This document shows, piece after piece, positions 1-12,883 of a stretch of DNA of 12,883 nt. A model generated the notes under the pieces. It did no database searches, had not been told where the DNA came from, and saw nothing but the letters and a program-made list of their open reading frames with translations. Both the position numbers and the translations under genes were made by a program. This stretch comes from a virus: UHGV virus genome UHGV-1980648, one strand, 5' to 3'. The first letter of the stretch is position 1; every line of letters begins with the position of its first letter.

Positions 1-50
1 ACACGCCGTACACCAGAGATTCGTTGTTGCCAAGCTCGATAGTATCCATG
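1..50 (-). CDS. Partial CDS (first 16 codons only; gene runs off the left edge), hypothetical early-left gene
   Basis: Minus-strand ATG at 50-48 with GAGG about 5 nt upstream; translation MDTIELGNNESLVYGV...; lies downstream of a strong leftward promoter. Not recognisably lambda N. Confidence 0.3.
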
Positions 51-120
51 CTGACCTCATTTCCCCTTAACGCCGGGTGGCGGAACTAAAACCTACAGCG
101 CCGTGCTGTTCTTGATAGAA

Positions 121-149
121 ATATTAGTAACGCGGATATTTTAAGTCAA
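121..149 (-). promoter_or_regulatory. Leftward sigma70-type promoter (pL-like)
   Basis: On the minus strand: TTGACT (complement of 144-149), 17-nt spacer, TAATAT (complement of 121-126); AT-rich context; drives the gene starting at 50. Confidence 0.45.
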
Positions 150-246
150 CAGTATGGCGTATGATATTTTTGATTTGGTAACTATGTAAATGTTTTTTCA
201 AGGGAAAAATATTAGTTATACAGCTGATTTGCAGAAGTTATGGCAC

Positions 247-277
247 AAAAAAACCGACTAAGACGTCGGTTTTTTTG
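247..277. terminator. Bidirectional intrinsic terminator downstream of the repressor gene
   Basis: A7 tract, hairpin CCGAC-taagac-GTCGG, T7 tract (aaaaaaaccgactaagacgtcggttttttt). Confidence 0.6.
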
Positions 278-302
278 TTGTGGATGGGGTAGTGAGCGGT
301 GG

Positions 303-764
303 CTACTGGTTACGTTTCTTTAGTGCCAGCATGTTCTCGAAGGCTTCCTCGTAGAGCTTGTTTAGTCCACGTAGCTGGTTAAGGAGTTTGGCTTTTTCTG
401 ACGCAGGTAGAATCTCGAAGAGGTTAAGTAACTCTGCCTGTTCTTCATTGACCAGCCTCCATCCTTTGCCTGAAAAGTTATCATCATAAGTATCTGATGA
501 TCTTACATAATTCATTAAGTCTTTAAGGTCTTCTCGAATGTCCTCTGGTTTTACCTTTAACAGAGCCGCAAATTTTAGCGCAGCGTCGGTATTTACCGGT
601 ATCTTGCCGTTCAGATACTGGCTAACGGTGCCTTGAGATTCGAATCCCAACAACTCAGCCGCCAGCTCTTGAGTCAGCTTCAGCTCTTTTTTTCTTGCAT
701 TCCATGCGGCTTTTAAATTCTTGCTCGCTTCTGGAGTTGCAATCACTTCGCGTGTTTTTTTCAT
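303..764 (-). CDS. Phage repressor, XRE-family HTH, CI-like but without an S24 peptidase (autocleavage) domain
   Basis: 153 aa; N-terminal HTH LTQELAAELLGFESQGTVSQYLNGK; C-terminal helical region with no Ala-Gly/Ser-Lys peptidase motifs; divergent from the Cro-like gene; start ATG at 764 has almost no leader, as with lambda cI from pRM. Confidence 0.75.
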   Translation of the reverse strand: MKKTREVIATPEASKNLKAAWNARKKELKLTQELAAELLGFESQGTVSQYLNGKIPVNTDAALKFAALLKVKPEDIREDLKDLMNYVRSSDTYDDNFSGKGWRLVNEEQAELLNLFEILPASEKAKLLNQLRGLNKLYEEAFENMLALKKRNQ

Positions 765-812
765 ACATAGAGTTTATTTGTTTTACCAATATTATCAAAG
801 ATAGTCTGGCTA

Positions 813-841
813 TTGATCTTTAAAATTAGCGGGGCTAATAT
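813..841 (+). promoter_or_regulatory. Rightward early promoter (pR-like) within the 765-865 operator/promoter region
   Basis: TTGATC (813-818), 17-nt spacer, TAATAT (836-841); precedes the Cro-like gene, whose RBS is GAAGG. Confidence 0.5.
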
Positions 842-865
842 TTGCTCGAGGCATAACGTAGAAGG

Positions 866-1147
866 TTGGCTATGAACTTAAGAGACTATTTAAAAGAGAA
901 ACATATCACCCAGCTACAGTTTGGGAAGCTAACGGGTTTATCTCAGGTGCATGTAAGTCGAGTGCTGGGGGGCTATGAAAGATTCAGCCCTGAAAAAGCA
1001 TTACGTGTTGCTGAAGTAACGAATTTCGAGGTTACACCTCATGAACTCCGGCCTGATATTTACCCGAATCCAACCGACGGCTTACCTGTTGGATTCAAGG
1101 CTAACACACCAAATGCATCGGAGTTGATTCATGAAAATCAGGCATGA
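866..1147 (+). CDS. Cro/YdaS-like HTH regulator
   Basis: 93 aa; HTH motif LQFGKLTGLSQVHVSRVLGG; first gene of the rightward operon, divergent from the repressor. Confidence 0.7.
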   Translation: MAMNLRDYLKEKHITQLQFGKLTGLSQVHVSRVLGGYERFSPEKALRVAEVTNFEVTPHELRPDIYPNPTDGLPVGFKANTPNASELIHENQA

Positions 1148-1556
1148 GCACATCCGCATGGCGATGAATGCCTGGGCGCATCCGGACGGTGAAAAAGTTC
1201 CGGCAGCTGAAATAACCCGGGCTTATTTTGAGCTTGGTATGACGTTCCCGGAATTATATGACGACAGCCATCCGGAAGCCCTGGCTCGCAATACCCAGAA
1301 AATTTTCCGCTGGGTGGAGAAAGACACTCCTGATGCGGTTAAAAAAATTCAGGCGTTGTTACCAGCGATCGAAAAAGCAATGCCGCCTCTGCTGGTGGCC
1401 CGAATGCGCAGCCACAGTTCAGCTTATTTTCGGGAGCTGGTGGAGACGCGGGAACGACTGGTGAGAGACGCTGATGATTTTGTCGCAGTGGCGATCGCTG
1501 GTTTCAACCAGATGAATCGTGGTGGCCCTGCAGGAAATATTGTGGCTGTGCATTGA
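1131..1556 (+). CDS. YdaT-like protein (CII-position regulator of Rac-type immunity regions)
   Basis: 141 aa; start overlaps the Cro-like stop by 17 nt; GGAG RBS; the Cro-like/YdaT-like/initiator order matches Rac ydaS-ydaT-ydaU from memory. Confidence 0.55.
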   Translation: MKIRHEHIRMAMNAWAHPDGEKVPAAEITRAYFELGMTFPELYDDSHPEALARNTQKIFRWVEKDTPDAVKKIQALLPAIEKAMPPLLVARMRSHSSAYFRELVETRERLVRDADDFVAVAIAGFNQMNRGGPAGNIVAVH

Positions 1557-1627
1557 CTCGCAATATTCATACCGGATCACTTCCGGCAATTTGTGAGTAA
1601 AAAGATTCGGTATCAGAAGAGGTGAGT

Positions 1628-2668
1628 ATGGCTAACGCCTGGCTCAGATTATGGCATGACATGCCAAATGACCCTAAGTGGCGAACAATTGCCAGGGTGT
1701 CAGGGCAGCCAATTGCAACAGTGATGGCAGTGTATATCCACCTTCTGGTGAGCGCGTCACGAAATGTCACGACATGTCACGGCGTGTCACTACGTGGTCA
1801 CATTGATGTCACGACGGAAGATTTAGCAAGTGCGCTTGATGTGACGGAAGAAGTAATTGATTCAATTTTACAGGCAATGCAGGGGCGGGTACTTGATGGA
1901 GATTTAATCACCGGATGGGAAAAACGCCAGGTACTGAAAGAGGACAATGGCAACGTTTCACAAACCGCGAAATCCCCGGCAGAGCGCAAGAGAGCGCAGC
2001 GCGAGAGGGAAAAATTACGAAAACAGAATGAGGGGTGTCACGACGAGTCACGCATATGTCACGACATGTCACGACGAGTCACGACAGATAAAGATACAGA
2101 TAAAGAATTAAACCCCACACATAACGCGCACGTGCGCGAGAGTGCTCCGACCAGTGAGTCGAGTGGTACGCCGTTGCAGGCAGCAGAACCTGCATCCCTG
2201 GATGGACTGAGCGAACCCATCGGGAAATTTCCGATGGTCGATGACTGGCATCCGTCGCCGGATTTTCGACGACGGGCTGCGTTGTGGGGGATGGCTTTGC
2301 CGGAGCCGGAATTTACACCTGCTGAACTTGCCGCTTTCCGGGACTACTGGGCAGCGGAGGGGAAAGTTTTCACGCAGGTTCAGTGGGAGCAGAAATTCGC
2401 CCGTCACGTAAATCACGTCAGGGCGCAGGTTAAGCCAGTCAGCAAGGGGGTAAACCATGCAGCAGCACCAGGTGGCACCGCATCACGGGCAGTTCAGGAA
2501 ATTCGGGCAGCACGTGAGCAGTGGGAACGTGAAAACGGATTTATCAGCGACGGAAACGGTCTGGAAGCTGTGGGAACTCATGGGGGAGGTTTATTCGAAC
2601 CGCTGGACCCAGAAGAACGGGGCCGCACCTTCGAAGCTCTGGATTGCACAGATTGGCGCGATGACTGA
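1628..2668 (+). CDS. Replication initiator / replisome organiser (functional O analogue, YdaU-like) with internal origin iterons
   Basis: ATG at 1628 with GAGGTGA RBS (the ORF track starts at a GTG at 1622); 346 aa; two iteron clusters inside the ORF; the next gene is a lambda-P-like helicase loader. Confidence 0.6.
   Translation: MANAWLRLWHDMPNDPKWRTIARVSGQPIATVMAVYIHLLVSASRNVTTCHGVSLRGHIDVTTEDLASALDVTEEVIDSILQAMQGRVLDGDLITGWEKRQVLKEDNGNVSQTAKSPAERKRAQREREKLRKQNEGCHDESRICHDMSRRVTTDKDTDKELNPTHNAHVRESAPTSESSGTPLQAAEPASLDGLSEPIGKFPMVDDWHPSPDFRRRAALWGMALPEPEFTPAELAAFRDYWAAEGKVFTQVQWEQKFARHVNHVRAQVKPVSKGVNHAAAPGGTASRAVQEIRAAREQWERENGFISDGNGLEAVGTHGGGLFEPLDPEERGRTFEALDCTDWRDD
1754..1815 (+). repeat. 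Iteron cluster 1: six GTCAC(GAC/GGC) repeats at roughly 10-11 bp spacing, putative ori
   Basis: gcgtcacgaaatgtcacgacatgtcacggcgtgtcactacgtggtcacattgatgtcacgac; helical-turn periodicity; located inside the initiator gene, as lambda ori is inside O. Confidence 0.6.
2037..2085 (+). repeat. Iteron cluster 2: five GTCACG(A)C repeats at 10-11 bp spacing
   Basis: gtcacgacgagtcacgcatatgtcacgacatgtcacgacgagtcacgac; same core as cluster 1, about 220 bp downstream. Confidence 0.6.
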
Positions 2669-3122
2669 GCAGCAAATCCGACAGGTCTGCCGCCAGTGCA
2701 TGGACCGCTGCCGGGCGGGTGAAACATGGCCTCCGGACCTGGCTGAGTTTGTGGCGCTGATTTCAGAAAGCGGGGCCAATCCATTTGGCCTGACGGTGGA
2801 TGCTGTGATGGAGGAGTACCGCCGCTGGCGTGATGAGTCCTGGCGATATGACGGAAGCGACAAATATCCGTGGCCTCAGCCTGTGCTGTACCACATCTGC
2901 CTCGAAATGCGTACCAGAGGGATTGAGCGCCAGATGACGCAGGGTGAGTTAAAACGACTTGCGGAACGGCAACTGACGAAATGGGCAAAGCATGTTGGTA
3001 ACGGGATGAGTGTTCCGCCAGTGCGACGACAACTGGAAGGGGCGAAACACCCGCAAGGGCCAACGCCAATTGAACGGCTGAAACAGGAATACGAACGCCG
3101 GAAGGCAGCTGGTTTTATTTGA
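2457..3122 (+). CDS. Lambda P-like replicative helicase loader
   Basis: Resemblance to lambda P by eye (ETWPPDLAEFVALISE...YPWPQPVLYHICLEMR...GELKRLAERQ against lambda P ...PSPGQFVAWCREE...YPWKSNAHYWLVTNLYQNMR...). ATG 2457 has an AAGGGGG RBS, but the ORF overlaps the initiator by 212 nt; alternative in-frame starts are 2580 and 2661, the latter forming ATGACTGA with the initiator stop. Confidence 0.7.
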   Translation: MQQHQVAPHHGQFRKFGQHVSSGNVKTDLSATETVWKLWELMGEVYSNRWTQKNGAAPSKLWIAQIGAMTEQQIRQVCRQCMDRCRAGETWPPDLAEFVALISESGANPFGLTVDAVMEEYRRWRDESWRYDGSDKYPWPQPVLYHICLEMRTRGIERQMTQGELKRLAERQLTKWAKHVGNGMSVPPVRRQLEGAKHPQGPTPIERLKQEYERRKAAGFI

Positions 3123-3155
3123 ATCTGAGAAACGATTTTGTCGGAGGAAATTTTA

Positions 3156-3926
3156 ATGGAAACCGTATTTGACGCACTGAAAGCAATGGGAAAAGCCACA
3201 TCGGTAGAACTGGCCGCGCGACTTGATATCAGTCGTGAAGAGGTTCTCAACGAGCTGTGGGAACTCAAAAGAAAAGGCGTCGTTGATAAAACTGGTCACA
3301 CCTGGTTTCTGGCTGGCGAAGGTGAATCCCGGGTAACCGAAGAGCGGCCAGTAAAATCTGAAGCACAGGATATGCTGACCGGGGAGGTCGAACAAAAAGT
3401 TACCGCAGACATGATGATTGAGTTTATCGGTCAGGATGGGGCTAAAACGTGTGAGGAACTGGCGGGTAAGTTCGGTGTCAGTACTCGCAAGGTTGCTTCC
3501 ACGCTGGCGGTGGTAACCGCAACGGGGCGGCTGGCACGCGTTAATCAGAACGGTAAATTTCGTTACTGCATGCCGGGCGATAATTTACCAGCAGAGCCGA
3601 AAGCCGCGCTGGTAACGGAAAGTGATGGTAAGGCCTTTCCTCAGCCAGCAGGTGCTGCGTTACCAGTCCGGGAAGCCGCAACACAGGAAGAAATTAAAAC
3701 AGAAACTGTGGCGGACATTGTGCAGTCGTTGCCATCGTTTACCGAAACGCAAGCAGATGAGCTGATTTTTCCGTCCCTGCGCAGGGCAAACCTGGCGCTG
3801 CGCAGGGCGAAAAGTGATGTTCAGAAGTGGGAGCGAGTCTGCGCCGCGCTGCGGGAGCTGAATAAACACCGGGATATTTTCAGTTCGATTGCTGATATTC
3901 CGGTTCATTCACCGACAACAAAGTGA
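3156..3926 (+). CDS. Hypothetical protein with two winged-helix-like segments (resembles the DUF1627-type proteins found after P in lambdoid prophages)
   Basis: ATG 3156 with GGAGG 7 nt upstream (the ORF track starts at a TTG at 3138); internal duplication [17 protein letters not shown] / [17 protein letters not shown]. Confidence 0.5.
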
Positions 3927-3941
3927 TCTCCGGAGGTGCTT

Positions 3942-4373
3942 ATGACAAGAGCATTTACACCAGAAGAGCGGGAAAAAATTAAGGGGCTGATCGTGGAATT
4001 CGTACGCCTTAACGGACGAGGCACGATTCGGCAGTTATCGGATGAAATTGGTGTCAGTCATGCGTCTGTCGGTCGTTTATGCATGGAGCTGGCCGCCAGT
4101 GGTGATGTTTACAATTCCGGTTACGGAGTATTCCCGTCTGAACAGGCTCGTAAGGACTGGCAAAATGCCCGCAAAAAACTCTCAAGGGCAAAGTCGAAGA
4201 AACCGGTTGTCGTTGATCCAGACCTTATCCGGGCATTACCAGATGGGGAAATACGGCGCTACGACAGACGCTACAACACAATTTGTCGCGAGTGCCGTAA
4301 CAGCGAAACGATGCAGCGTGTGCTGGCATTCTGGCGAGGGAGTGCAGAGGGATTGATGTTCTCCCCGTCGTGA
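3942..4373 (+). CDS. Hypothetical protein, N-terminal wHTH-like, Cys-containing C-terminus
   Basis: ATG 3942 with GGAGG 5 nt upstream (the ORF track starts at a GTG at 3936); 143 aa; segment IRQLSDEIGVSHASVGRLCMELAASG. Confidence 0.5.
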   Translation: MTRAFTPEEREKIKGLIVEFVRLNGRGTIRQLSDEIGVSHASVGRLCMELAASGDVYNSGYGVFPSEQARKDWQNARKKLSRAKSKKPVVVDPDLIRALPDGEIRRYDRRYNTICRECRNSETMQRVLAFWRGSAEGLMFSPS

Positions 4374-4405
4374 ATGACGGGGGCTTACGTGTTCAGAAAA
4401 GTGAT

Positions 4406-5080
4406 TCATATAGAGGCTGAATCTGATCTTTTTTGTTCACGTCTGGCTTCCACCATTGCAGGCAGAGTGAAGGCGTAGACTAAAAACATTTCGGTAAAAC
4501 TCAGGATCTGGCTTGCCTCAATTGGTGTGAAAACTTCATCTGTATGAACTGCTTTATTGGCATCAATTCGTACAATATGAGCCCATTCCTTCATCTGTTC
4601 AGTGATCAGGCCTTTTTTGTAAATCATCTGAATACGTTGCGACAGCGATTCTTTTCCTGCTTCATCGCCGAGCAGTTTTTTCGTGGAGATATCGAGGACT
4701 CTGCGACAAAGAATAACCACTGTGTCGTACCGCCTCCTCTGTAAATCCTCTTTTGCCTCAACAAAAGTACGGTCTGCAACCGGGGGCGTATATTCTGGTG
4801 CGGTAATTTTTTTGACCACAGGATAGATCTTGCGGAAACGGTACTGGCTATTTCCTGAAATCAGAATATCGAGGTCTTTTTTCTGGCTTTCCGCCATGGG
4901 ACCGTGATAGTGGTCTGATGGGATTTCAACAATAGCAACACCTCCTCGATGACAACTTCTGCATACAAAAGCGACGTTAAAAAAAGGTGTTTTTTCAATT
5001 TGTTTTTCGGCAAATGCCTCAATAACAGCTCGCTCTTTTAAACAGTGCGGGCATGTGATATCAAAGGAGACTAAACCCAT
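4406..5080 (-). CDS. Zinc-ribbon plus DUF4145-like domain protein; candidate defence / abortive-infection cargo gene
   Basis: 224 aa from the ATG at 5080 (GAGGAA RBS); N-terminal CPHC...x26...CRSC zinc ribbon; C-terminal helical region LSQRIQMIYKKGLITEQMKEWAHIVRIDANKAVH resembles DUF4145 from memory; opposite orientation to the flanking phage operons. Confidence 0.6.
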   Translation of the reverse strand: MGLVSFDITCPHCLKERAVIEAFAEKQIEKTPFFNVAFVCRSCHRGGVAIVEIPSDHYHGPMAESQKKDLDILISGNSQYRFRKIYPVVKKITAPEYTPPVADRTFVEAKEDLQRRRYDTVVILCRRVLDISTKKLLGDEAGKESLSQRIQMIYKKGLITEQMKEWAHIVRIDANKAVHTDEVFTPIEASQILSFTEMFLVYAFTLPAMVEARREQKRSDSASI

Positions 5081-5324
5081 GGATATTCCTCGCGAAATTA
5101 AAGAAATTAACGAAATCATTGAGGTTACTGATCGCCCCGAGTTTACCCTCATGCGTCGTTATGAAACAGGAACCGACGAACAAAAATACATCATGGTTGC
5201 AGCATTGGCTGTGATGGCGATAGAAAGGGAGCGAAGGGAAAAGGACGTAATGGTTATTCCTGAGAGAAATGATTCACCGGATTTGAGATGGCAGGAGCCG
5301 GAGTGGGATGTGGTAATCCGGTGA
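5079..5324 (+). CDS. Small acidic hypothetical protein (81 aa), divergent from the zinc-ribbon gene
   Basis: ATG 5079 with AAGGAGA RBS 8 nt upstream; its start codon overlaps the minus-strand start of the 4406-5080 gene within CATG; no recognisable domain. Confidence 0.3.
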   Translation: MDIPREIKEINEIIEVTDRPEFTLMRRYETGTDEQKYIMVAALAVMAIERERREKDVMVIPERNDSPDLRWQEPEWDVVIR

Positions 5325-5378
5325 TTGATATTTCTCTGGGGTAAAGCGCCGCCAGAATGACGGCGCGGTAGTGGAGAG

Positions 5379-5687
5379 TTAAACGAAGCGGATCTGGAGT
5401 TTTTTCCCTGTAGCACGGGCGAATTTTTTCAGTGTGGCAAATGATGGGCCGCTTGTACCTGATGCAAGATTGCTTTCCATTCTGGTTATCGCAGTCGCTT
5501 TTGTTCCCATACGTTCAGCAACTTCAGCCTGGGTTAAGCCAGCTTCTTTTCGTGCTGCCAGCATTTCATCAAGTAGTGCGAATTCATCGGCGATGGCGTC
5601 GTATTCTGCTTTTACTGCGGGGTTAGACAACATTTTTTCTACCATTTCATCGTGTGTCATGGTAGGTGGGGTACGTTTACCAGTCAT
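5379..5687 (-). CDS. XRE-family HTH antitoxin (HigA-like)
   Basis: 102 aa; HTH LTQAEVAERMGTKATAITRMESN; AAGGAGG RBS; overlaps the upstream toxin gene by 11 nt. Confidence 0.8.
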   Translation of the reverse strand: MTGKRTPPTMTHDEMVEKMLSNPAVKAEYDAIADEFALLDEMLAARKEAGLTQAEVAERMGTKATAITRMESNLASGTSGPSFATLKKFARATGKKLQIRFV

Positions 5688-6006
5688 GCTTAACCTCCTT
5701 CATTCTGGTTTCAGCTTTTCTAAGCTCGGCAGGTGGAGTTTTTTGCGTTTTCTTTACAAAGCTATGCAACATAATGATTCGCTTTCCTTTTAGCGTGCAG
5801 TAAAAAACACGCCCTATGCCTTCCGAGCCCTTAAGGCGGATTTCAAACAAACCGTCGCCAAATGCCTCTGTATGCGGGGAACCAAGATTAGCTCCGTAAA
5901 TACGCATTTTCTCCGTGTACCGAATGTACCGGGCTTGTAAGGTCTCAGGAAGAGAAAGGATCTCAGCTTCAACCTCGTCACTGTAGTATTCGATAATGTA
6001 GTTCAT
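5677..6006 (-). CDS. RelE/ParE-superfamily toxin, phage Gp49-like / HigB-like
   Basis: 109 aa from ATG 6006 (alternative ATG at 6018); MNYIIEYYSDEVEAEILSLPETLQARY...FGDGLFEIRLKG...RVFYCTLKGKRIIMLHSFVKKTQKTP is typical of this family; toxin-first order with HTH antitoxin. Confidence 0.75.
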   Translation of the reverse strand: MNYIIEYYSDEVEAEILSLPETLQARYIRYTEKMRIYGANLGSPHTEAFGDGLFEIRLKGSEGIGRVFYCTLKGKRIIMLHSFVKKTQKTPPAELRKAETRMKEVKHDW

Positions 6007-6048
6007 GAGAGTAAACATAACAAATTTGTTATATACATTCAAGGTATG

Positions 6049-6078
6049 TTGACGACAACACATATCCGGGATTATATT
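6049..6078 (+). promoter_or_regulatory. Rightward sigma70-type promoter restarting the nin-region operon
   Basis: TTGACG (6049-6054), 18-nt spacer, TATATT (6073-6078); its -35 overlaps the -35 of a divergent minus-strand promoter for the toxin-antitoxin operon (TTGTCG, complement of 6053-6058, with -10 TATATA at complement of 6030-6035). Confidence 0.4.
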
Positions 6079-6140
6079 CTTCGCACGCCAGCAAAATCTG
6101 GCGTCGGGATTTGCACCCCGGATATTCAACCGCGACAGAC

Positions 6141-6162
6141 ACACGCCGCGAGCGTGTTTTTT
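6141..6162 (+). terminator. Intrinsic terminator or attenuator in the leader upstream of the ORF6N gene
   Basis: ACACGC-cgcga-GCGTGT followed by TTTTTTGTT; preceded by two further hairpins at 6086-6103 and 6104-6120. Confidence 0.5.
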
Positions 6163-6326
6163 GTTGTCGTAAGCACACGCACATCTGAATTATGGTGGGG
6201 CGTATGGGGGAGCCGAAAGGCTCGCCGGTTGGTTGATCCGGTAGTGCAAACCCTGTACGTCTCACCACCCAAAGATTTGCACCTGACGGTGGTGATAGTT
6301 AAATTCATCAACCAGAGGGCGTTGTC

Positions 6327-7028
6327 ATGGCGACTCAAATTTCCGTTGAAACTCTTTCCCCAATTGCCTACAACCAGATCCCCGTAATTACTACAGAATT
6401 ATTGGCGCAATTGTATGGCACTGAAACAGTCAATATAAAAATGAATTTTTCCCGTAACTCTGCGCGATTTGTACAGGGAAAACATTTCTTTAAGTTGGAA
6501 GGGAATGAACTACGTGAGTTTAAGCACAGACTATCTTTAAGCGAGTCTGTTAGCCGCGAGGTAACAGAAAGTTACTCTGTGAAAATCGCCCGCAATGTTC
6601 GCTCCCTCATCCTCTGGACAGAACGCGGCGCAGCCCGTCACGCAAAAATGCTCGAAACCGATCAGGCGAGGGAAGTGTTCGAAAAACTGGAAGACTGCTA
6701 TTTCAGCCAGGGAAAAACAGCACCAACCGAACAGCAGCCGCAGATTCAGCCACAATTCACAGCCGAGGAAATCATCCTCCTTTGCTACATGCAACTCTGG
6801 ATGGAAAAAGCCCAGGACCTTAGCAAGCAGCTGTACCCCATAATGAAAGAGCTGAACTCCTCATACACGAACAAGCTGTATGACATTGCGTTTGAGACCA
6901 TCTACATGGTGACGAAGAACAGAGACGCGCTACTAAGGGAGGTAACACGTCTCGACATGTCAAGTTCCGTTATCCAGCGGGCCATGCCAATGCTGAAAAG
7001 CCTGCGGGCAAGACAATTTGAATTCTGA
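6327..7028 (+). CDS. ORF6N-domain protein, putative antirepressor-like regulator
   Basis: 233 aa; N-terminal IPVITTELLAQLYGTETVNIKMNFSRNSARFVQGKHFFKLEGNELREFK...LWTERGAARHAKMLETDQAREVFEKLEDCYF fits the ORF6N pattern from memory; GAGGG RBS. Confidence 0.55.
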   Translation: MATQISVETLSPIAYNQIPVITTELLAQLYGTETVNIKMNFSRNSARFVQGKHFFKLEGNELREFKHRLSLSESVSREVTESYSVKIARNVRSLILWTERGAARHAKMLETDQAREVFEKLEDCYFSQGKTAPTEQQPQIQPQFTAEEIILLCYMQLWMEKAQDLSKQLYPIMKELNSSYTNKLYDIAFETIYMVTKNRDALLREVTRLDMSSSVIQRAMPMLKSLRARQFEF

Positions 7029-7033
7029 AACTA

Positions 7034-7058
7034 AAGGAGCTTCGGCTCCTTTTTTGTT
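7034..7058 (+). terminator. Intrinsic terminator between the ORF6N gene and ninB
   Basis: AAGGAGC-ttcg-GCTCCTT followed by TTTTTTGTT. Confidence 0.55.
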
Positions 7059-7082
7059 GGGAAAATCCAGTGAGAGGGAATA

Positions 7083-7493
7083 ATGAACCAGACTATCTTC
7101 CTCCGAAGTAAGCAGCAGCAACAATTCGCCATTAACGCCATCCTTGCAACAACTCTCGATAAAGACAAACCCGTTACGATCCGTATCACCGATTACAAGC
7201 GTAATCTCGCTCAAAATGCAAAATTTCACGCGATGGTCGCTGATATATCCCGCCAGGTTAAGTGGTGCGGCAGGGGGCTAAAACCAGAACAGTGGAAAGT
7301 TTTGTTAATCAGCGGTCATGCCGTGGCGACAAAACAGGAAGCTGATGTTTTGCCAGGTCTTGAAGGTGAATACGTCAATATCCGCGAAAGCAGTGCGCAA
7401 ATGAGCGTGAAGCGTATGGCAAGCCTGATTGAGTACACAACATCCTGGGCCGTGGATCAGGGTGTCAGATTTACCGACAGGAGGTACGAATGA
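7083..7493 (+). CDS. ninB: NinB (Orf-family recombination mediator)
   Basis: 136 aa; [30 protein letters not shown] aligns by eye with lambda NinB NRKLWACLGDVSRQVEWHGRWLDAESWKCV. Confidence 0.85.
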
Positions 7494-7612
7494 GACGACA
7501 GCGACGAAGCATCACCGATATCGTCTGTGAAAACTGCAATTACCTTCCAACCAAACGCTCCCGAAATAAACCCAGGCCAGTCCCCAAAGAATCTGATGTT
7601 AAAAACTTCAAC
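7490..7612 (+). CDS. ninE: NinE-like small protein, 3' end lost in the assembly gap
   Basis: ATGA overlap with the ninB stop; [41 protein letters not shown] runs straight into the N run; identity from memory of lambdoid NinE and the ninB-ninE-ybcO-rusA synteny. Confidence 0.5.
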
Positions 7613-7625
7613 NNNNNNNNNNNNN
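7613..7625. other. Assembly gap (13 N)
   Basis: Run of n characters in the sequence. Confidence 1.
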
Positions 7626-7694
7626 TATCCGGTGGCTAAGGCGTCGAGCAAGATTTAATTGTCACTCCGGATAGCCTACTGCATGAGGAATAAG

Positions 7695-7988
7695 ATGATG
7701 ACAAACCTACGCAAAGAAGCGCGCGGCAGAGAATGCCAGGTACGGATTTATGGCGTATGCAATGGCAACCCTGAAACTACAGTTCTGGCGCATTACCGAA
7801 TGGCTGGAATTTGCGGAACGGGAACAAAGCCAGATGATCTGTTGGCTGCATGGGCCTGTAGTGACTGCCATAATGAAATCGATCGCCGTACTCGCATTCT
7901 CGACAACAACGACGCCAGACTTTACCACCTGGAAGGCGTGATCAGGACGCTGGCGATATTGCTGAAGGAGGGAAAGATTAAGTCATGA
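7695..7988 (+). CDS. YbcO-like protein (DUF1364 family, putative nuclease)
   Basis: ATG 7695 with GAGGA RBS (the ORF track starts at a TTG at 7659); RKEARGRECQVRIYGVCNGNPETTVLAHYRMAGICGTGTKPDDLLAAWACSDCHNEIDRRT matches the YbcO family from memory. Confidence 0.75.
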   Translation: MMTNLRKEARGRECQVRIYGVCNGNPETTVLAHYRMAGICGTGTKPDDLLAAWACSDCHNEIDRRTRILDNNDARLYHLEGVIRTLAILLKEGKIKS

Positions 7989-8347
7989 ATGAATATGAGT
8001 TTGTGCTTCCCTGGCCGCCGACGGTGAATACCTACTGGCGAAGACGGGGAAGCCAGTACTACATCAGCGATAAAGGCCAGAAATACCGAAAAGACGTACA
8101 GCAAATCATCCGGCAACTCAGATTAGACATTTTCACTAAATCACGACTTCGCATCACAATTATTGCTGAACCACCAGATTCCCGCCGTCGCGACCTCGAT
8201 AACATCCTGAAAGGTTTACTCGACTCTCTTATCCACGCCGGATTTGCGGAAGACGACGTGCAATTCGATGACATTCGCGTAATTCGCGGCGTGAAAGTGC
8301 TTGGCGGTAGAGTGGGGATAAAAATCACCGAACTGGAGAACATATGA
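7985..8347 (+). CDS. rusA: RusA Holliday-junction resolvase
   Basis: 120 aa; LPWPP...RRRDLDNILKGLLDSLIHAGF...DDVQFDDIRV matches RusA (LPWPPSNN...[21 protein letters not shown]); ATGA overlap with the preceding gene. Confidence 0.9.
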   Translation: MNEYEFVLPWPPTVNTYWRRRGSQYYISDKGQKYRKDVQQIIRQLRLDIFTKSRLRITIIAEPPDSRRRDLDNILKGLLDSLIHAGFAEDDVQFDDIRVIRGVKVLGGRVGIKITELENI

Positions 8348-8544
8348 ACGCCACAATTCAAACAATACCGGAATTGCTTATCCAGGCACGAGGCAATATG
8401 ACTGAAGTTTCACGAAAACTGAACTGTAATCGTGCTACGGTCAGAAAATATGTCGGTGATAAAGAAGGCAAACGGCACGCCGTCGTCAACGGTGTCCTTA
8501 TGGTTCATCGTGGATGGGATAAGGGGAAAGCTACTGATGCGTGA
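8344..8544 (+). CDS. ninH: NinH-like protein
   Basis: 66 aa; TIPELLIQARGNMTEVSRKLNCNRATVRKYVGDKEGKRHAVVNGVLMVHRGW closely parallels lambda NinH from memory; ATGA overlap with rusA. Confidence 0.8.
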   Translation: MNATIQTIPELLIQARGNMTEVSRKLNCNRATVRKYVGDKEGKRHAVVNGVLMVHRGWDKGKATDA

Positions 8545-8779
8545 TATTCAGCAGGTGCCTGAACGCATGGCTTTATTCAGGTCGTCTGGAAAAGCGCATG
8601 AGCAGCGTAATAGCGGAGTTCATGGCGAAGAGTATATGAACAGATTATTCGAATGCTATATGAGACTGAAGCACGGAGATCGCTATGACCTGACACGTGA
8701 TGCTGACGGTTTCTACTGCCGTGAAGTTGTGAAACGAATGTTTGAAGTGTGGTGTCATTGTAAAGGATGGGGGCTGTGA
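8537..8779 (+). CDS. Hypothetical Cys-rich protein, translationally coupled to the next gene
   Basis: ATG 8537 (MRDIQQV...) with AAGGGGA RBS, overlapping the ninH stop; 80 aa; its stop overlaps the next start as TGATG. Confidence 0.4.
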   Translation: MRDIQQVPERMALFRSSGKAHEQRNSGVHGEEYMNRLFECYMRLKHGDRYDLTRDADGFYCREVVKRMFEVWCHCKGWGL

Positions 8780-9393
8780 TGCGGCTAACCCCAGTATTCG
8801 GCATGGTTAACTTTATTAATGATGCTCATTTCCGCCGCATATGGAGGCATCCGAAGAAAATCATTAACTCTCGTCAGAAAGCATGGGTTCACTACATGCT
8901 ACAGGTATGGGGAAATGTTAACGCTGGTGATGATTCTCCTTGTGGTGCAATTAACGTTATTGGGCGACTGATGATTCGCAGTCAGTGGAGCGATGACAAA
9001 GCTAAGCAGATTGAGTCTGTTGTCATGCGTCTGTATGAAGAAGACGGACTACGTGGAGATGAACTCCATCAGAAAGCCCGAGAACTGGTCATCCCTCAGT
9101 CATCGGCAGGTAATATCATTGCTCTCGCCAAAGAATCCGATGATGCTGCTTTCGTTGAACGTGTGATGGTTGAGACCTTTCATCGTGAAAGCCCTGTCCG
9201 TGATGTAGCTATTAGGCGATATTGCAATCGCGACAGCACGCAAGATATCGCCAGGATGATTTCTCAGATAACAGGAGTTGATATTCAGTATTGCCGGAGG
9301 CGGGTCGTGTGGTGCGAGAGGGTCCTTGATTCAGAAATGTTTTATGCAATGAAGCGAGAATTGGAGAAAGAACTTCTAGTGATTGCTGGATGA
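8779..9393 (+). CDS. Putative late-gene antiterminator (Q-position protein); identity by position only
   Basis: 204 aa from ATG 8779 (the ORF track starts at 8767); last gene before a pR'-like promoter and tR'-like terminator; no clear similarity to lambda Q by eye. Confidence 0.35.
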   Translation: MRLTPVFGMVNFINDAHFRRIWRHPKKIINSRQKAWVHYMLQVWGNVNAGDDSPCGAINVIGRLMIRSQWSDDKAKQIESVVMRLYEEDGLRGDELHQKARELVIPQSSAGNIIALAKESDDAAFVERVMVETFHRESPVRDVAIRRYCNRDSTQDIARMISQITGVDIQYCRRRVVWCERVLDSEMFYAMKRELEKELLVIAG

Positions 9394-9417
9394 TGCAAAA
9401 TATTTTTTGTAAATGCG

Positions 9418-9446
9418 TTGCTTTCGAGAAATGAAAGTAGTATGTT
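9418..9446 (+). promoter_or_regulatory. Late promoter candidate (pR'-like)
   Basis: TTGCTT (9418-9423), 17-nt spacer, TATGTT (9441-9446), starting 25 bp after the stop of the Q-position gene. Confidence 0.4.
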
Positions 9447-9553
9447 TTGTGTATGCTCGGAGCAAAAGCGCACTGAGAAGCGAAAGAGAAATCCTGATTT
9501 ACCTCGGTCGTCGATAATATTTAGGATCGGCATACTGGCTAGATTAGGTAAAG

Positions 9554-9584
9554 GCCTCGGCAGAAATGTCGGGGCTTTTTGTTT
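9554..9584 (+). terminator. tR'-like intrinsic terminator
   Basis: Hairpin 9554-9575 (GCCTCGGC-agaaat-GTCGGGGC, two G-U pairs) followed by TTTTTGTTTG. Confidence 0.5.
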
Positions 9585-9657
9585 GCACAACAGGTAAGAG
9601 CATTGAACCCGCAGACCTCGTGGAATTGGTGAAAGGTGTGCGCAGTGCTCTTATCGT

Positions 9658-9784
9658 TGTGGTGAAGCTCAATGGCGAGCTAGCAGACAGGCGACTGTGA
9701 AAATACTAGTCATGTAGCGGATCGCCGCGCGTATTGTAATCGGCAGCGCACCGATGGGAGCTGGTTCGATTCCGGCCGCCACAA
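9658..9784 (+). other. tRNA-like element: degenerate or insert-bearing tRNA, possibly an ileX/ileZ-like remnant
   Basis: Canonical T-arm GCTGG-TTCGATT-CCGGC at 9760-9776; 3' acceptor CGCCACA pairs with TGTGGTG at 9658-9664; D-arm-like GCTC-aatggc-GAGC; AGGCGACT resembles the E. coli tRNA-Ile2 anticodon stem; no canonical anticodon arm and length about 127 nt. Confidence 0.25.
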
Positions 9785-9926
9785 TCCAAACTGAGCCGTA
9801 GCCTCTGGGTGTCCTGAATTCATCAGTGATAGTTACGCTGCGGCCTTCTACATACGATTTTTGTGAAAAGCGGGTGGCAAGAGGCTGCGAAATTTTTAAA
9901 TACCTCACAATTCCACAGCTTGATGA

Positions 9927-10123
9927 TTGTCTGGCTGCCGGAGAATTTGTTAAAAATTGCATCGCGTGGTGAATCCCCCTCAGCGGCGGGGCATCTGGCA
10001 AAGTGTATGATCCAGCGAACATGCAAATTCAGTAGCCAGGCTGAATTTACCGGGAGGCACCTGGCACCATGCGACAGACAGAAATTAGGCTATACTTCAG
10101 CCCCTCTCCGGAGGGGCTTTTCT
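9927..10123 (+). repeat. Paralogous unit A: promoter-like box, structured core, intrinsic terminator (candidate small RNA gene)
   Basis: TTGTCT (9927-9932), 17-nt spacer, TTAAAAAT; core closed by CGCGTGGTG (9963-9971) pairing with CACCATGCG (10065-10073); internal hairpin AAATTCAG/CTGAATTT; terminator at 10099-10123. Confidence 0.5.
10099..10123 (+). terminator. Intrinsic terminator of unit A
   Basis: GCCCCTC-tccg-GAGGGGC followed by TTTTCT. Confidence 0.6.
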
Positions 10124-10312
10124 GTGCAGGATGTGTCACAGTTTCCTGAATTCTGAGTACTGTCCTGTTACTCAGGGTGCTATATTTTCTGACGTGATGA
10201 AAGTCTGCCGGAAGGCGGAACGTATCGGAAATGACCCAGTAGAGAAAACGTTGACTCAGATACCGATGCTGAGTTACCGGGAAACCGGCATCACATGACC
10301 GCTATCCTTCCA

Positions 10313-10335
10313 GGCTCGCTCCGGCGGGCCTTTTT
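10313..10335 (+). terminator. Intrinsic terminator, a third copy of the terminator module with a covarying stem
   Basis: GGCTCGC-tccg-GCGGGCC followed by TTTTT; flanking sequence (gctatccttccag...) is homologous to the 3' ends of units A and B. Confidence 0.55.
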
Positions 10336-10395
10336 ACTGCAGAAAACAGTTTTCCCGTAAAATGCCACGTTACTCACAATTCAGGCTGGCGATTA

Positions 10396-10606
10396 TTGTC
10401 TGGCCAGCGGGAAGTTTGTTAAAAAAATATGGCATGGTGAATCCCCCTGTGCGGAGGGGCATATCAGCGACAGGTGTTTGGTCACACCCCTTATCCTTTC
10501 TGGTGCGGGTTCAGGTGCTGATACTGAACTCACCGGGAGGCACCCTGCACCATGCATGAACGGTACATAGCGCTACTCTCCAGCCCCTCTCCGGAGGGGC
10601 TTTCTT
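10396..10606 (+). repeat. Paralogous unit B: promoter-like box, structured core, intrinsic terminator (candidate small RNA gene)
   Basis: TTGTCT (10396-10401), 17-nt spacer, TTAAAAAAATAT; core closed by GCATGGTG (10432-10439) pairing with CACCATGC (10548-10555); internal hairpin GTTCAG/CTGAAC; shares blocks TGGTGAATCCCCCT and CACCGGGAGGCACC with unit A. Confidence 0.5.
10582..10606 (+). terminator. Intrinsic terminator of unit B
   Basis: GCCCCTC-tccg-GAGGGGC followed by TTTCTTGTTG. Confidence 0.6.
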
Positions 10607-10613
10607 GTTGGAT

Positions 10614-10643
10614 AAAAAAAAGCCCGCGCCGGGAAGCGCGGGT
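10614..10643 (-). terminator. Opposite-facing hairpin with A8 tract (possible leftward terminator, back to back with the unit B terminator)
   Basis: AAAAAAAA then CCCGCGC-cgggaa-GCGCGGG; on the minus strand this reads hairpin followed by a T8 run. Confidence 0.35.
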
Positions 10644-10843
10644 GGCAAGGAATAAACAACAAAACGTGAAGTGATCAATTTTCAGCTGGCGAATAATACC
10701 TGATAGTAATCACTCTGCGCAACTGTATGGTCTTTTTCGTATTGCGGGCTGTAGTCATCCTCCTGTTTCTGAACCCTTGTCCATGACTGACGTCAGCCCG
10801 CACCTTATCTTGATTGCATACACTATCCCTGCCGGGAGGAATA

Positions 10844-12805
10844 ATGGCATTTAAACACTATGACGTGGTCAGGGCATCATCGCCGTCAGACCTCGCAGGA
10901 AAACTGACGCAAAAACTGAAGGAAGGCTGGCAACCCTATGGTAGTCCGATTATCTCAAACGCGGGTTATGGTGCTGAATTTATCCAGGCTATAGTCGCTG
11001 AAGGGGATATGACCTCTCCGGTAGTTTCACCGGGGGGAGATGGTACCCGGACTGTTGTTGTTGAACCAGAATATTACTTTGTCATTGCGCTGGCCGGACA
11101 GTCAAACGGTATGGCGTATGGTGAAGGGCTTCCGCTGCCGGAGACATATGACCGTCCGGACCCGCGTATTAAACAGCTGGCGCGTCGCAGCACTGTCACG
11201 CCGGGTGGTGCGTCCTGTAACTACAATGACATTATTCCTGCGGACCACTGCCTGCATGATGTTCAGGATTTGAGTAAGTTTTCACACCCGAAAGCTAGCG
11301 CAGCTCAGTATGGATGCGTGGGGCAGGGATTACATATCGCGAAGAAATTGTTGCCGTTTATTCCGGCGAATGCCGGTATTCTTCTGGTTCCGTGCTGCCG
11401 TGGTGGTTCTGCATTTTTGGCGGGCGATGAAGGTACCTTCAGCGAATCCACCGGCGCAAGCGAGACCTCGGCACGCTGGGGTGTAGATAAGCCACTGTAC
11501 AAGGACCTGCTTACCCGTACTCAGGCCGCACTGAAGGCTAACCCTAAAAATATTCTGCTTGCAGTGGTCTGGATGCAGGGCGAGTTTGATTTGAAACAGG
11601 GTGCATACGCCACTCAGCCGGGGCTGTTTGATTCCATGGTGGAAAAATATCGTTCTGACCTGTCGGAATTCGGAGGTCAGTGTCTCGGGGGCTCTCCGTC
11701 ATCGGTTCCCTGGATTTGTGGCGACACGACCTACTACTGGAAGCAGACTTATTCTTCGCAATACGATGCGGTGTATGGTGCATACAAGACGAAATCCGCA
11801 AAAAAAATCTTCTTTGTGCCGTTTATGACGGATGAAAACGGGCGAAATGTGGGTACCAACGAGCCGTCAGAAGATCCGGATGTTGCGGATATTGGGTATT
11901 ACGGAGCCGGTGGTCGAACGGACGCCAAAACCTGGACGACGGCCGACCGTAAAACGCATTTTGGATCATGGGCACGTCGTGGGATTATTTCCGACCGTCT
12001 GGCAACGGCGATTCTTGTGCATGCCGGGAGAACCGCTGAATTCATTACCGGAAAACAGCCTGATACGGTGAAGCCCACCGGACCTTCCGGTGAAGGTACG
12101 GAGAGAGAGCCGGAAGCCCCGGTCAGTAACCGAACCCTGATGAGTCTGCTGGCGTCCGGCGAAGACCTGGCATCACAGGGCTGGCGCTATTATCACAAAC
12201 CGGCGAGCGGAGACAATGTTAACAAAAACATTGCTGAAGCGGTGGTCAGTGATGCGGGGGCTACGGGAGGTAAGGCCCTGCAACTGAATAAACCGGAAAA
12301 CCACATCTGGTTTCTGGAGCATGATGCAGCCGGACAGGGAGTGGAGTTACTGAAGAAGGGGGGACGTGTGAGCGTACGGTTTAAGTTGCCGGGTTCACTG
12401 GTGCCGAATCGGTTTGCCCTGGGCATTTACTGGCAGTTGTCGTCCCTGCCGGAGGGAGTGACGCTGGCAGAGGAAGGCAACGACATGCTGATGTCCTTCT
12501 TCCTGCAGACGGATGCGACGAACCTGAACGCGATGTACCACAAGAAGCCGAATGCGAAGCTGGATACGTTCGGGGTCTTTGATAACGGATGGCACACACT
12601 GGCTTTTGAGTTTGCCGGAAACAACAGCATTCAGGTGACGCCGGTACTGGATGAGAAACGGGGGACGCCGTTCACACTGGTGAAATCTCCGGCATCAGGG
12701 GCGGCGGACAAACTGCAACTGACAGGCATATCAAAGGCGGCGACATATACGCTGCTGATTGACAGTGTGAAGGTGGAAGTGAACAACGCGGATGCCGCGG
12801 CATGA
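10844..12805 (+). CDS. nanS-p: Prophage NanS-p-like sialate O-acetylesterase (N-terminal DUF1737-like domain, SGNH/SASA esterase core, C-terminal extension)
   Basis: ATG 10844 with GGGAGGA RBS (the ORF track starts at 10814); 653 aa; MAFKHYDVVRASSPSDLAGKLTQKLKEGWQPYGSPI N-terminus; LAGQSNGMAYGEG block typical of sialate O-acetylesterases; location downstream of Q and the late terminators matches Stx-type prophages, from memory. Confidence 0.8.
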   Translation: MAFKHYDVVRASSPSDLAGKLTQKLKEGWQPYGSPIISNAGYGAEFIQAIVAEGDMTSPVVSPGGDGTRTVVVEPEYYFVIALAGQSNGMAYGEGLPLPETYDRPDPRIKQLARRSTVTPGGASCNYNDIIPADHCLHDVQDLSKFSHPKASAAQYGCVGQGLHIAKKLLPFIPANAGILLVPCCRGGSAFLAGDEGTFSESTGASETSARWGVDKPLYKDLLTRTQAALKANPKNILLAVVWMQGEFDLKQGAYATQPGLFDSMVEKYRSDLSEFGGQCLGGSPSSVPWICGDTTYYWKQTYSSQYDAVYGAYKTKSAKKIFFVPFMTDENGRNVGTNEPSEDPDVADIGYYGAGGRTDAKTWTTADRKTHFGSWARRGIISDRLATAILVHAGRTAEFITGKQPDTVKPTGPSGEGTEREPEAPVSNRTLMSLLASGEDLASQGWRYYHKPASGDNVNKNIAEAVVSDAGATGGKALQLNKPENHIWFLEHDAAGQGVELLKKGGRVSVRFKLPGSLVPNRFALGIYWQLSSLPEGVTLAEEGNDMLMSFFLQTDATNLNAMYHKKPNAKLDTFGVFDNGWHTLAFEFAGNNSIQVTPVLDEKRGTPFTLVKSPASGAADKLQLTGISKAATYTLLIDSVKVEVNNADAAA

Positions 12806-12854
12806 TAAAAAAAGCCGCCAGCGGCAGGAACGGAAGCTGGCGGAGGTAATCCCA

Positions 12855-12883
12855 ATGGAGAATGTAAAGAAAAGATGCTTTCG
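12855..12883 (+). CDS. Partial CDS (first 9 codons; runs off the right edge), hypothetical
   Basis: ATG 12855 with GGAGG 8 nt upstream; MENVKKRCF...; too short to identify. Confidence 0.2.

Follow-up and report, generated by a model that had tools for sequence, protein, structure and literature searches.

The window analyzed here, a 12,883-nucleotide stretch of virus genome UHGV-1980648, carries near its left end an immunity repressor gene that appears to occupy the cI position of a Qin/Rac-like lambdoid Escherichia coli prophage. The repressor is encoded by a minus-strand open reading frame (ORF; positions 303–764) of 153 residues with an ATG start. Our analysis suggests that this protein is a non-cleavable repressor of the DicA/Gifsy class with a Rem-type antirepressor as its usual partner, and that the ORF6N-type antirepressor Ant, encoded farther right, was imported by a crossover and is gated by an RNA leader. 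The immunity region contains the following features.

120–215, minus strand: leftward (PL-like) control region, with operator-like CTAATATT at 120–127 and 208–215 and promoter-like sites at 149→121 (TTGACT-17-TAATAT) and 190→161
245–278: perfect 14-nucleotide inverted repeat ACAAAAAAACCGAC/GTCGGTTTTTTTGT, just 3′ of the repressor stop codon
303–764, minus strand: immunity (CI-position) repressor, with an N-terminal helix-turn-helix (HTH) domain (about res. 11–89) and a predicted DicA/GfoR-like helical tail (about res. 103–152), no S24 domain
765–871: divergent PRM/PR-like intergenic region, with operator-like motifs at 786–793 and 835–842
872–1147, plus strand: YdaS-family HTH protein in the Cro position (longest ORF from 866; RefSeq start 872)
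1131–1556, plus strand: YdaT-family protein in the CII position (phrog_163 'CII-like transcriptional activator', E=2.5e-45)

The repressor is identical to RefSeq entry WP_000753626.1 ('helix-turn-helix domain-containing protein'), which many E. coli strains carry, ABU 83972 and 042 among them, and the exact protein recurs in ~12,000 assembly blocks of the sequence index. Its N-terminal half matches Pfam HTH_3 (res. 23–75, E=1.1e-9; HTH_3 and HTH_31 together span res. 23–77), and a sequence search of the PDB aligns res. 12–78 with the N-terminal domain of lambda cI (3kz3, 1lmb). Pfam gave no match to Peptidase_S24 (PF00717) in the repressor even at E≤0.1, and the same search detected the domain in the 235-residue cI of PhiR12_1, which served as a positive control. 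Neither an Ala-Gly nor a Cys-Gly dipeptide occurs anywhere in the protein. Moreover, only ~75 residues follow the HTH domain, to be set against the 116 positions of the Pfam S24 profile, so the remainder is too short for an S24 domain. An AlphaFold model computed with 19 homologues as input (mean predicted local distance difference test, pLDDT, 71.6) is all-helical, with helices extending to residue 152 and no β domain; the helices up to residue 89 have a pLDDT of 84–90. A Foldseek search of the PDB with this model returned the lambda cI N-terminal domain as the best match (template-modelling score 0.77 normalized to the target); the other matches were HTH folds of the XRE, HigA, and C-protein kinds, and none was an S24 fold.

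The N-terminal domain is 49–60% identical to those of Peptidase_S24-bearing repressors of 234–259 residues (P0023, P0025–28, P0030), one of which (P0025) has an AG site together with GDSM and K motifs. The 153-residue architecture is kept in homologues from Enterobacter, Hafnia, and Serratia (58–92% identity). Because this architecture is conserved across genera and the same N-terminal domain has S24-fused relatives, the repressor is best read as a C-terminal domain swap and an established domain combination, not a truncated cI. Autocleavage of the RecA/S24 type would be impossible for such a protein, a prediction that is well supported. The 'phage repressor pr' of E. coli Nissle (PMC5987069) was considered as the same gene and rejected, as its primers are absent from both the window and the ABU 83972 locus.

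The C-terminal tail points to a known class. By BLASTP, the last 42 residues are 38% identical to the DicA C-terminus (E=8e-6), and a 26-residue segment is 38% identical to the Gifsy-1 repressor STM2628 (GfoR/GtgR; E=3e-4), with the common core (E)LLxLFxxLPxxEK. Positions ~82–131 of the phrog_5736 profile are matched by the C-termini of the window repressor, DicA, and the Gifsy repressor alike. Homology of the tail to DicA and GfoR/GtgR thus has moderate support, and the repressor shows the traits of that class, namely a length of ~135–160 residues, an N-terminal HTH, and a CI position divergent from a cro-like gene. It appears to join the described DicA/Gifsy class of short non-cleavable repressors and not to constitute a new kind. 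RacR, which is listed in the same class, was examined as a relative and rejected, having neither sequence similarity to the repressor nor a PHROG in common with it. The Gifsy repressors are short, remain uncleaved on induction, and are inactivated by small LexA-controlled antirepressors (Lemire et al. 2011, PMC3121763); the same authors found homologues of ~150 residues in most E. coli genomes, named DicA among them, and documented antirepressors acting in trans between co-resident prophages in Salmonella. For DicA, the antagonist is Rem, a small Qin protein that derepresses the DicA-controlled promoter dicBp 165-fold (Ragunathan et al. 2023, PMC10448788). According to the same study, what triggers Rem is unknown, ~1% of cells show spontaneous firing of the DicA-controlled promoter, and its response to urea and heat does not require Rem (PMC10448788).

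These results bear out the first-pass annotation of this DNA in several respects. It had described an N-terminal XRE HTH, which the Pfam and PDB matches confirm, and a C-terminal half free of S24 features and of an Ala-Gly site, in line with the Pfam, AlphaFold, Foldseek, and dipeptide results. The profile and fold checks for peptidase S24, named beforehand as the observation that could overturn this description, came out negative (Pfam at E≤0.1, Foldseek). Its comparison with Gifsy prophages extends beyond analogy, as the last 40–50 residues are probably homologous to DicA and to Gifsy-1 GfoR/GtgR.

On the left, the repressor gene is flanked by the end of a ydfA-like gene, with which related prophages start a ydfA-ydfB-ydfC-dicB operon; on the right, ydaS and ydaT are followed by genes for a DnaT-like replication initiator, a lambda-P-like loader, DUF1627, and DUF977. 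The 8-nucleotide motif CYAATATT occurs four times in the 12.9-kb window (0.58 expected) and overlaps promoter-like hexamers; two copies lie in the control region on each side of the repressor gene and none elsewhere. These copies are candidate operators of the repressor; none lies near ant. The promoter-like site for the repressor (798→771, minus strand, TTGATA-16-TAAACT) ends 7 nucleotides before the ATG at 764, and the transcript may start at or near the ATG and be leaderless. The lambda cI mRNA made from PRM is likewise leaderless. A candidate promoter for ydaS, read by eye, is TTGATC-17-TAATAT (813–841). The inverted repeat at 245–278 resembles a bidirectional intrinsic terminator, which would separate the repressor gene from the leftward operon. 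Pfam names the families of the Cro- and CII-position genes (866–1556) 'YdaS_toxin' and 'YdaT_toxin'. Because of their position and their matches to phrog_35 (transcriptional repressor) and phrog_163 (CII-like activator), the data indicate that these genes probably encode lysis-lysogeny regulators and not toxins.

We found no exact CTGT-N8-ACAG LexA box in the window, and sequences within two mismatches of it occur at the expected frequency (49 versus 47.9). A 20-nucleotide position-specific scoring matrix (PSSM), built from 27 E. coli SOS boxes, scores its training sites at 12.8–27.1 and, as a positive control, the Gifsy-1 dinI box at 23.4. The best score in the window is 8.5, below the known boxes and below the mean maximum of shuffled sequences (9.4), and the best score upstream of ant (5950–6330) is ~0. 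The window encodes no LexA-dependent or SOS-linked induction route.

The candidate antirepressor gene lies in the nin region and is preceded by a structured leader, as listed below.

6049–6078, plus strand: sigma-70-like promoter TTGACG-18-TATATT (10/12), 6 nucleotides upstream of the IsrK 5′ end, with hexamers conserved in four loci
6085–6162, plus strand: IsrK-family RNA (Rfam RF01394; 75.4 bits, gathering score 50)
6188–6272, plus strand: C4 antisense RNA (Rfam RF01695; 74.4 bits, gathering score 45)
6276–6320, plus strand: ant leader with C4 target sites, b2 TTTGCAC (6276–6282) and a2 ATCAACCA (6307–6314)
6327–7028, plus strand: antirepressor-like protein Ant, 233 residues (ORF6N E=1.8e-20; P22_AR_C E=2.3e-7; phrog_377 'anti-repressor Ant' E=5e-81)
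7033–7052, plus strand: intrinsic terminator after ant (8-base-pair stem, T run)

The ORF6N/P22_AR_C arrangement of Ant is that of P22-type antirepressors, and the protein is in all probability a bona fide antirepressor homologue. Residues 1–156 are 62% identical to Gifsy-1 AnrP; the C-terminal P22_AR_C domain is unrelated to that of AnrP. The promoter, IsrK, C4, ant, and terminator form one self-contained transcription unit. The IsrK RNA holds sites a1 (TCAACC, 6126–6131) and b1 (TTTGCAC, 6110–6116, in the IsrK loop) and ends in an intrinsic terminator (stem 6141–6157 followed by a T run); a sub-threshold Rfam match to c4-a1b1 covers 6072–6124. In C4, a hairpin loop exposes a′ (TGGTTGAT, 6230–6237) and a single-stranded segment exposes b′ (GTGCAAA, 6244–6250). 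The loop is complementary to a2, and b′ is complementary to the TTTGCAC present at both b2 and b1. Site a2 sits directly 5′ of the Shine-Dalgarno sequence GAGGG (6316–6320), itself 6 nucleotides before the ant ATG.

We compared the leaders of the window, PhiR12_1, E. coli G1/2, and Gifsy-1, in which the a/b blocks vary and the C4 segments vary along with them. In G1/2, TTAGGAAC pairs with GTTCCTAA and GAAACCA with TGGTTTC, and in Gifsy-1, TTGGCGT pairs with ACGCCAA and ATCACCG with CGGTGAT. Cognate C4/leader pairs show a two-block complementarity of 14–15 nucleotides and most non-cognate pairs 5–6 nucleotides, with the Gifsy-1 C4 reaching 10–12 against other leaders. There are at least three mutually non-complementary C4 specificity classes with compensatory changes, formed by the window together with PhiR12_1, by E. 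coli G1/2, and by Gifsy-1 (window 6110–6314, L017 9951–10192, L015 3037–3277). Because the a/b blocks covary across loci, there is good evidence that the predicted C4/ant-leader pairing is functional.

How this pairing would control ant can be compared with Gifsy-1, where transcripts from the isrK promoter read through the terminator and AnrP is translated only when short IsrK is present in trans, by way of orf45 (Hershko-Shalev et al. 2016, PMC4825925). The orf45 homologue of the window (6192–6236) has 14 codons, owing to a 1-nucleotide difference, and stops 91 nucleotides before the ant ATG; the frame also has 14 codons in PhiR12_1, 27 in E. coli G1/2, and 45 in Gifsy-1, where its stop codon overlaps the ATG. 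Cut to 14 codons, orf45 cannot provide translational coupling in the window, and its truncation in the window, PhiR12_1, and G1/2 means that the published coupling mechanism is not general for the IsrK-C4-ant module. The simplest reading is that C4 directly occludes the ant ribosome-binding site. Thus, ant would be gated by IsrK/C4 RNA and not by SOS or LexA, with C4 repression of ant itself deduced from the pairing and from the related systems.

The exact repressor has a different companion elsewhere. We compared 12 loci carrying it (ABU 83972, phage Rac-SA53, and ten from a sequence look-up), a small and partly redundant sample. A rem homologue is present in 11 of the 12, 7–9 kb to the right and flanked by an HTH-Peptidase_M78 gene and DUF968, and the remaining locus ends before the rem position; an ORF6N Ant occurs in none of the 12. 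The Rem genes at these loci are annotated as PF27490 'Rem' in precomputed Pfam annotation and have phrog_340 in common with K-12 Rem; the two types differ considerably, the ABU 83972-type protein having 57 residues and starting MKIEELREIFSEDGLYAV. The window spans the whole nin region, where rem usually sits, and tblastn and a Rem hidden Markov model run on all six-frame ORFs found no rem, Gifsy GftA-like, or DinI-like gene in it below E=0.05. No LexA box scoring ≥12.8 by PSSM was found near rem in 10 related prophages, so their Rem genes do not look LexA-controlled either, in agreement with the published unknown Rem trigger (PMC10448788). In the Rem-bearing prophage of ABU 83972, the only strong SOS box seen (L001 33288–33307) is the LexA-box match TACTGTAAAAATATCCAGTT (score 24.0), located where a DNA-methyltransferase gene begins, beyond the Q-like antiterminator on its downstream side. 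Directly beside rem, these prophages encode a 367-residue HTH_3 + Peptidase_M78 (ImmA/IrrE-like) protein (L005 976–2079; the same gene in L001 and L006–L014) that is absent from the window, and an ImmA-like protease may contribute to how Rem-bearing prophages are induced.

The origin of the repressor-Ant arrangement became apparent in base-by-base comparisons. Window positions 1–3725 are identical, with zero mismatches, to a Rem-bearing prophage type (L009), and positions 3483–12883 are identical to a prophage with an S24 repressor (L020) apart from three single-nucleotide polymorphisms and an N run. The two identities overlap in one interval.

3483–3725: recombination crossover interval, 243 base pairs, inside the DUF1627 gene (3138–3926)

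The N run comprises 13 nucleotides (7613–7625) in the NinE-like region between ninB and ybcO and is due to masking or to a scaffold gap. The exact 233-residue Ant is rare, with 23 blocks in the sequence index, and wherever the immunity region is on the same contig (L019, L020, L021), the repressor beside it is an HTH + Peptidase_S24 protein of 235–237 residues, of two immunity types. Closely related Ant cassettes also accompany S24 repressors (L017, PhiR12_1); in PhiR12_1, the leader is 98% identical, a related Ant lies in the nin region, and the genome encodes an S24 cI. In the closest complete genomes (E. coli G1/2 and relatives), the same block of DUF4145, toxin-antitoxin, and IsrK-C4-ant genes lies downstream of a 'LexA family' repressor. 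A scan of genome contigs with Ant yielded 79 loci in other species. The combined repressor-Ant arrangement is missing from all 5,426 complete E. coli genomes, and the chimeric DUF1627 protein with the gene order P, DUF1627, DUF977, DUF4145 was found on one other contig, a 2.9-kb metagenome scaffold. Four matches to the junction pattern in metagenome and viral contigs were rejected as independent recombinants; they carry other DUF1627 alleles (89% identical) with different flanks and are uninformative. Because the crossover at 3483–3725 joins Ant to the repressor and the native context of Ant is S24 repressors, Ant is not a co-evolved partner of the window repressor. The missing S24 domain is therefore no pointer to Ant as the inducer, Ant being native to an S24-repressor lineage. 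The adjacency itself reflects either homologous recombination, in which case the recombinant is very recent and rare, or a join made during assembly at a shared repeat.

Taken together, the explanation that best accounts for these observations, and that we consider reasonably probable, is a non-cleavable DicA-class repressor whose usual partner is of the Rem type and beside which an RNA-gated Ant was imported through a crossover. Release of the repressor by a protein antagonist is supported by homology to two experimentally studied systems. By analogy to DicA and Gifsy, the repressor would leave its CYAATATT operators when an antagonist binds. Its usual antagonist would be a small Rem-family antirepressor encoded in the nin region with no LexA box before its gene. 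In the window, the Rem segment would have been replaced at 3483–3725 by the right arm of a lineage with S24-cleavable repressors, bringing in a unit resembling both P1 immI and Gifsy-1 isrK, in which the terminator would be leaky and a1/b1 in IsrK would act as decoy or target sites. In the lysogen, C4 would pair with a2/b2 and leave Ant untranslated. Ant would be made only once C4 is outrun or relieved, which may happen in a fresh infection, on superinfection by a phage of another C4 specificity, or when the IsrK/C4 balance shifts. For the prophage to be induced, either the imported Ant would have to cross-react with the repressor or a Rem-type antirepressor would have to act in trans; both the Ant-repressor and the Rem-repressor interactions are putative.

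The first-pass annotation had favored induction by an antirepressor over induction by RecA. The argument against RecA stands, as the repressor cannot be of the RecA/S24 autocleaving kind and appears to be of the DicA/Gifsy class; the pointer to the ORF6N-type gene as the antirepressor is not supported, as the usual partner is Rem (11/12 loci). That annotation had rightly recognized an antirepressor-like gene at 6327–7028, as the ORF6N, P22_AR_C, and phrog_377 matches indicate, and its failure to see a LexA box upstream was reproduced by the exact search and by the controlled PSSM. It had left the induction route unresolved; control of ant no longer falls under that verdict, given the IsrK-C4 leader and the lack of a LexA box.

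Several observations weigh against this explanation. The three C-terminal helices of the repressor model (res. 107–152) have a low-confidence pLDDT of 48–67, and the similarity of the tail to DicA and GfoR spans 26–42 residues and is significant solely in pairwise and PHROG-profile comparisons. A phmmer search with the C-terminus alone against 1.8 billion representatives gave four matches, all close relatives or fragments, and so no wider family. The Rem linkage is co-occurrence in 12 loci that form a small and partly redundant sample. The left arm of the prophage lies outside the window, and the absence of rem and of LexA-controlled genes holds for the window only. Finally, Gifsy-1 AnrP, the homologue of the Ant N-terminus, induces a prophage with a DicA-class repressor (PMC4825925), and the imported Ant may accordingly be active on the window repressor.

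This last point leads to a doubtful yet serious alternative, in which Ant (6327–7028) inactivates the repressor in cis when the IsrK/C4 gate opens, independently of SOS, as in the Gifsy-1 IsrK-AnrP system. P22 Ant acts on several heterologous repressors. Gifsy-1 has the same IsrK-C4-ORF6N layout, with the N-terminal identity between AnrP and Ant noted above; the prophage, which has a DicA-class repressor, is induced when AnrP is overexpressed and no longer shows stationary-phase induction when the isrK promoter is deleted (PMC4825925). However, the exact Ant is seen with two S24-type repressors and never with the window repressor in the 12 loci, and the two genes were brought together by a crossover whose parental lineages each match the window at 100% identity over their part. 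The P22_AR_C domain of Ant is also foreign to AnrP, the orf45 coupling used by IsrK in Gifsy-1 is destroyed, leaving a 14-codon ORF, and the window repressor has a conserved partnership with Rem. An equally doubtful alternative is that the antagonist is a Rem-family antirepressor acting in trans, supplied by another Qin/Rac-like prophage in the cell or by the left arm. Rem is the conserved partner of the exact repressor and antagonizes DicA (PMC10448788), antirepressors that cross between prophages are documented (PMC3121763), and E. coli genomes carry sequences related to parts of the window at a median of 2 places each, with a maximum of 20. Against this, the divergence between K-12 Rem and ABU 83972-type Rem is considerable, and action of Rem on the window repressor is putative.

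It is unlikely that the repressor-Ant adjacency is an assembly chimera, in which two co-resident prophages were joined through the 243 base pairs of DUF1627 identity. The halves are each 100% identical to a separate known prophage type, the arrangement is found in 0/5,426 complete E. coli genomes, several short Ant contigs break in or beside DUF1627, and the window contains the 13-nucleotide N run. Countering these points, the chimeric DUF1627 protein recurs with the same gene order on the 2.9-kb metagenome scaffold, and homologous recombination in conserved genes is the normal route to lambdoid mosaicism. We also give little credence to the absence of any dedicated inducer, with the element either defective or switching stochastically through repressor/YdaS bistability and repressor instability, as reported for DicA/DicC. 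The ~1% spontaneous firing and the Rem-independent urea and heat response of the DicA-controlled promoter (PMC10448788) would fit such a scheme, as would a window with neither rem nor a LexA box. Yet the early region appears intact, with uninterrupted reading frames for the replication genes, NinB, RusA, NinH, the Q-like gene, and the ant cassette, and intact regulators speak for a functional phage. RecA-dependent cleavage of the repressor through a cryptic site or fold is exceedingly improbable, as no support for it was found, the protein has no S24 profile match, β domain, or Ala-Gly/Cys-Gly site and only ~75 residues past the HTH, and the homologous Gifsy repressors are experimentally uncleaved (PMC3121763).

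The induction route matters, as it decides whether DNA-damaging antibiotics mobilize the prophage. The repressor is very common, with its ~12,000 assembly blocks including ABU 83972 and 042, and its class is not subject to direct RecA cleavage; cassettes in which C4/IsrK RNAs gate an antirepressor, for their part, move between prophages whatever the repressor type. Speculatively, and with the odds well against it, the DUF1627 crossover may have swapped Rem for an IsrK/C4-gated Ant that is promiscuous on cleavable and DicA-class repressors alike, making an SOS-blind antisense-RNA gate the sole induction switch. If so, the covarying C4 a/b 'immunity' classes would decide which E. coli prophages can be cross-induced by a given co-resident or superinfecting phage.

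Between the replication genes and the ant unit, a minus-strand block (4406–6006) encodes a DUF4145 protein (4406–5152), a HigA-like HTH antitoxin (5379–5687), and a Gp49/RelE-family toxin (5677–6006), with a plus-strand phrog_8371 ORF (5055–5324) in its midst; it looks like a moron or a toxin-antitoxin insertion. PADLOC, applied to the repressor, Ant, DUF4145, and the toxin-antitoxin pair, yielded no noteworthy defence-system call. Two tandem copies of the STnc100 small-RNA family (Rfam RF02076; 9934–10127, 139 bits, and 10403–10612, 130 bits) sit between a Q-like antiterminator gene (8767–9393) and a SASA-family esterase gene (10814–12805), and tRNA genes are absent, unlike in the ABU 83972 prophage.

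Among known repressors, DicA of the E. coli K-12 Qin prophage is similarly short (135 residues versus 153 here), has an N-terminal HTH and no Ala-Gly site, and lies in the CI position, with a Cro-like gene running divergently and the ydfA-ydfB-ydfC-dicB operon beside it. The window repressor differs in that its HTH is of the lambda cI type, aligning with S24-bearing repressors rather than with DicA; the Cro-like gene is of the YdaS type and not DicC, and the window has no rem. The Gifsy-1/-2/-3 repressors GfoR, GtgR, and GfhR belong to the same non-cleavable class (~136–150 residues), are inactivated by binding and not by cleavage, and have the C-terminal motif (E)LL(x)LF(xx)LP(x)(S/A)E in common with the window repressor. 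Their antirepressors GfoA/GftA, however, are encoded in a dinI-antirepressor operon with a LexA box, whereas the window has no LexA box, dinI, or GftA-like gene. More generally, the LexA box found at the antirepressor promoter of LexA-controlled systems (186 Tum, N15 AntC, Gifsy GfoA/GftA) is absent here. Lambda CI, P22 C2, and LexA resemble the repressor in N-terminal fold and sequence (PDB 1lmb, 3kz3) and in genetic position, but it lacks their entire S24 C-terminal domain.

The ant unit has two close counterparts. The Gifsy-1 isrK-orf45-anrP locus has the same order and spacing, with a promoter, IsrK and its terminator, 26 nucleotides, C4 (STnc1160), 54 nucleotides, and an ORF6N antirepressor (in L015, IsrK 3037–3113, C4 3139–3222, anrP from 3277). 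In contrast to the window, it has a full orf45, other a/b sequences, and an AnrP without P22_AR_C, and it is located after Q, whereas the window module lies in the nin region. The c4 immunity of P1 and P7 follows a two-site a/b logic (Citron and Schuster 1990, as cited in PMC7313666). The immI locus (c4-icd-ant) likewise encodes a C4-family RNA with a′/b′ complementary to upstream a1/b1 and to a2/b2 in the ribosome-binding-site region, and its specificity classes are set by covarying a/b sequences, as in P1 versus P7. Unlike immI, the window lacks an upstream ORF resembling icd, which leaves a2 immediately next to the ant Shine-Dalgarno sequence; furthermore, Ant here has the ORF6N/P22_AR_C architecture, the element is an integrated lambdoid phage, and its repressor is unrelated to P1 C1.

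Specific to the window are the fusion of a lambda-type HTH to a DicA-type tail, a C4/IsrK leader without orf45, and the loss of rem by the DUF1627 crossover. The system embodies no new principle because every component has published precedent, from the C4-controlled ant (1990) and the short non-cleavable E. coli repressors (2011) to the IsrK-AnrP locus (2016) and the DicA-Rem pair (2023).

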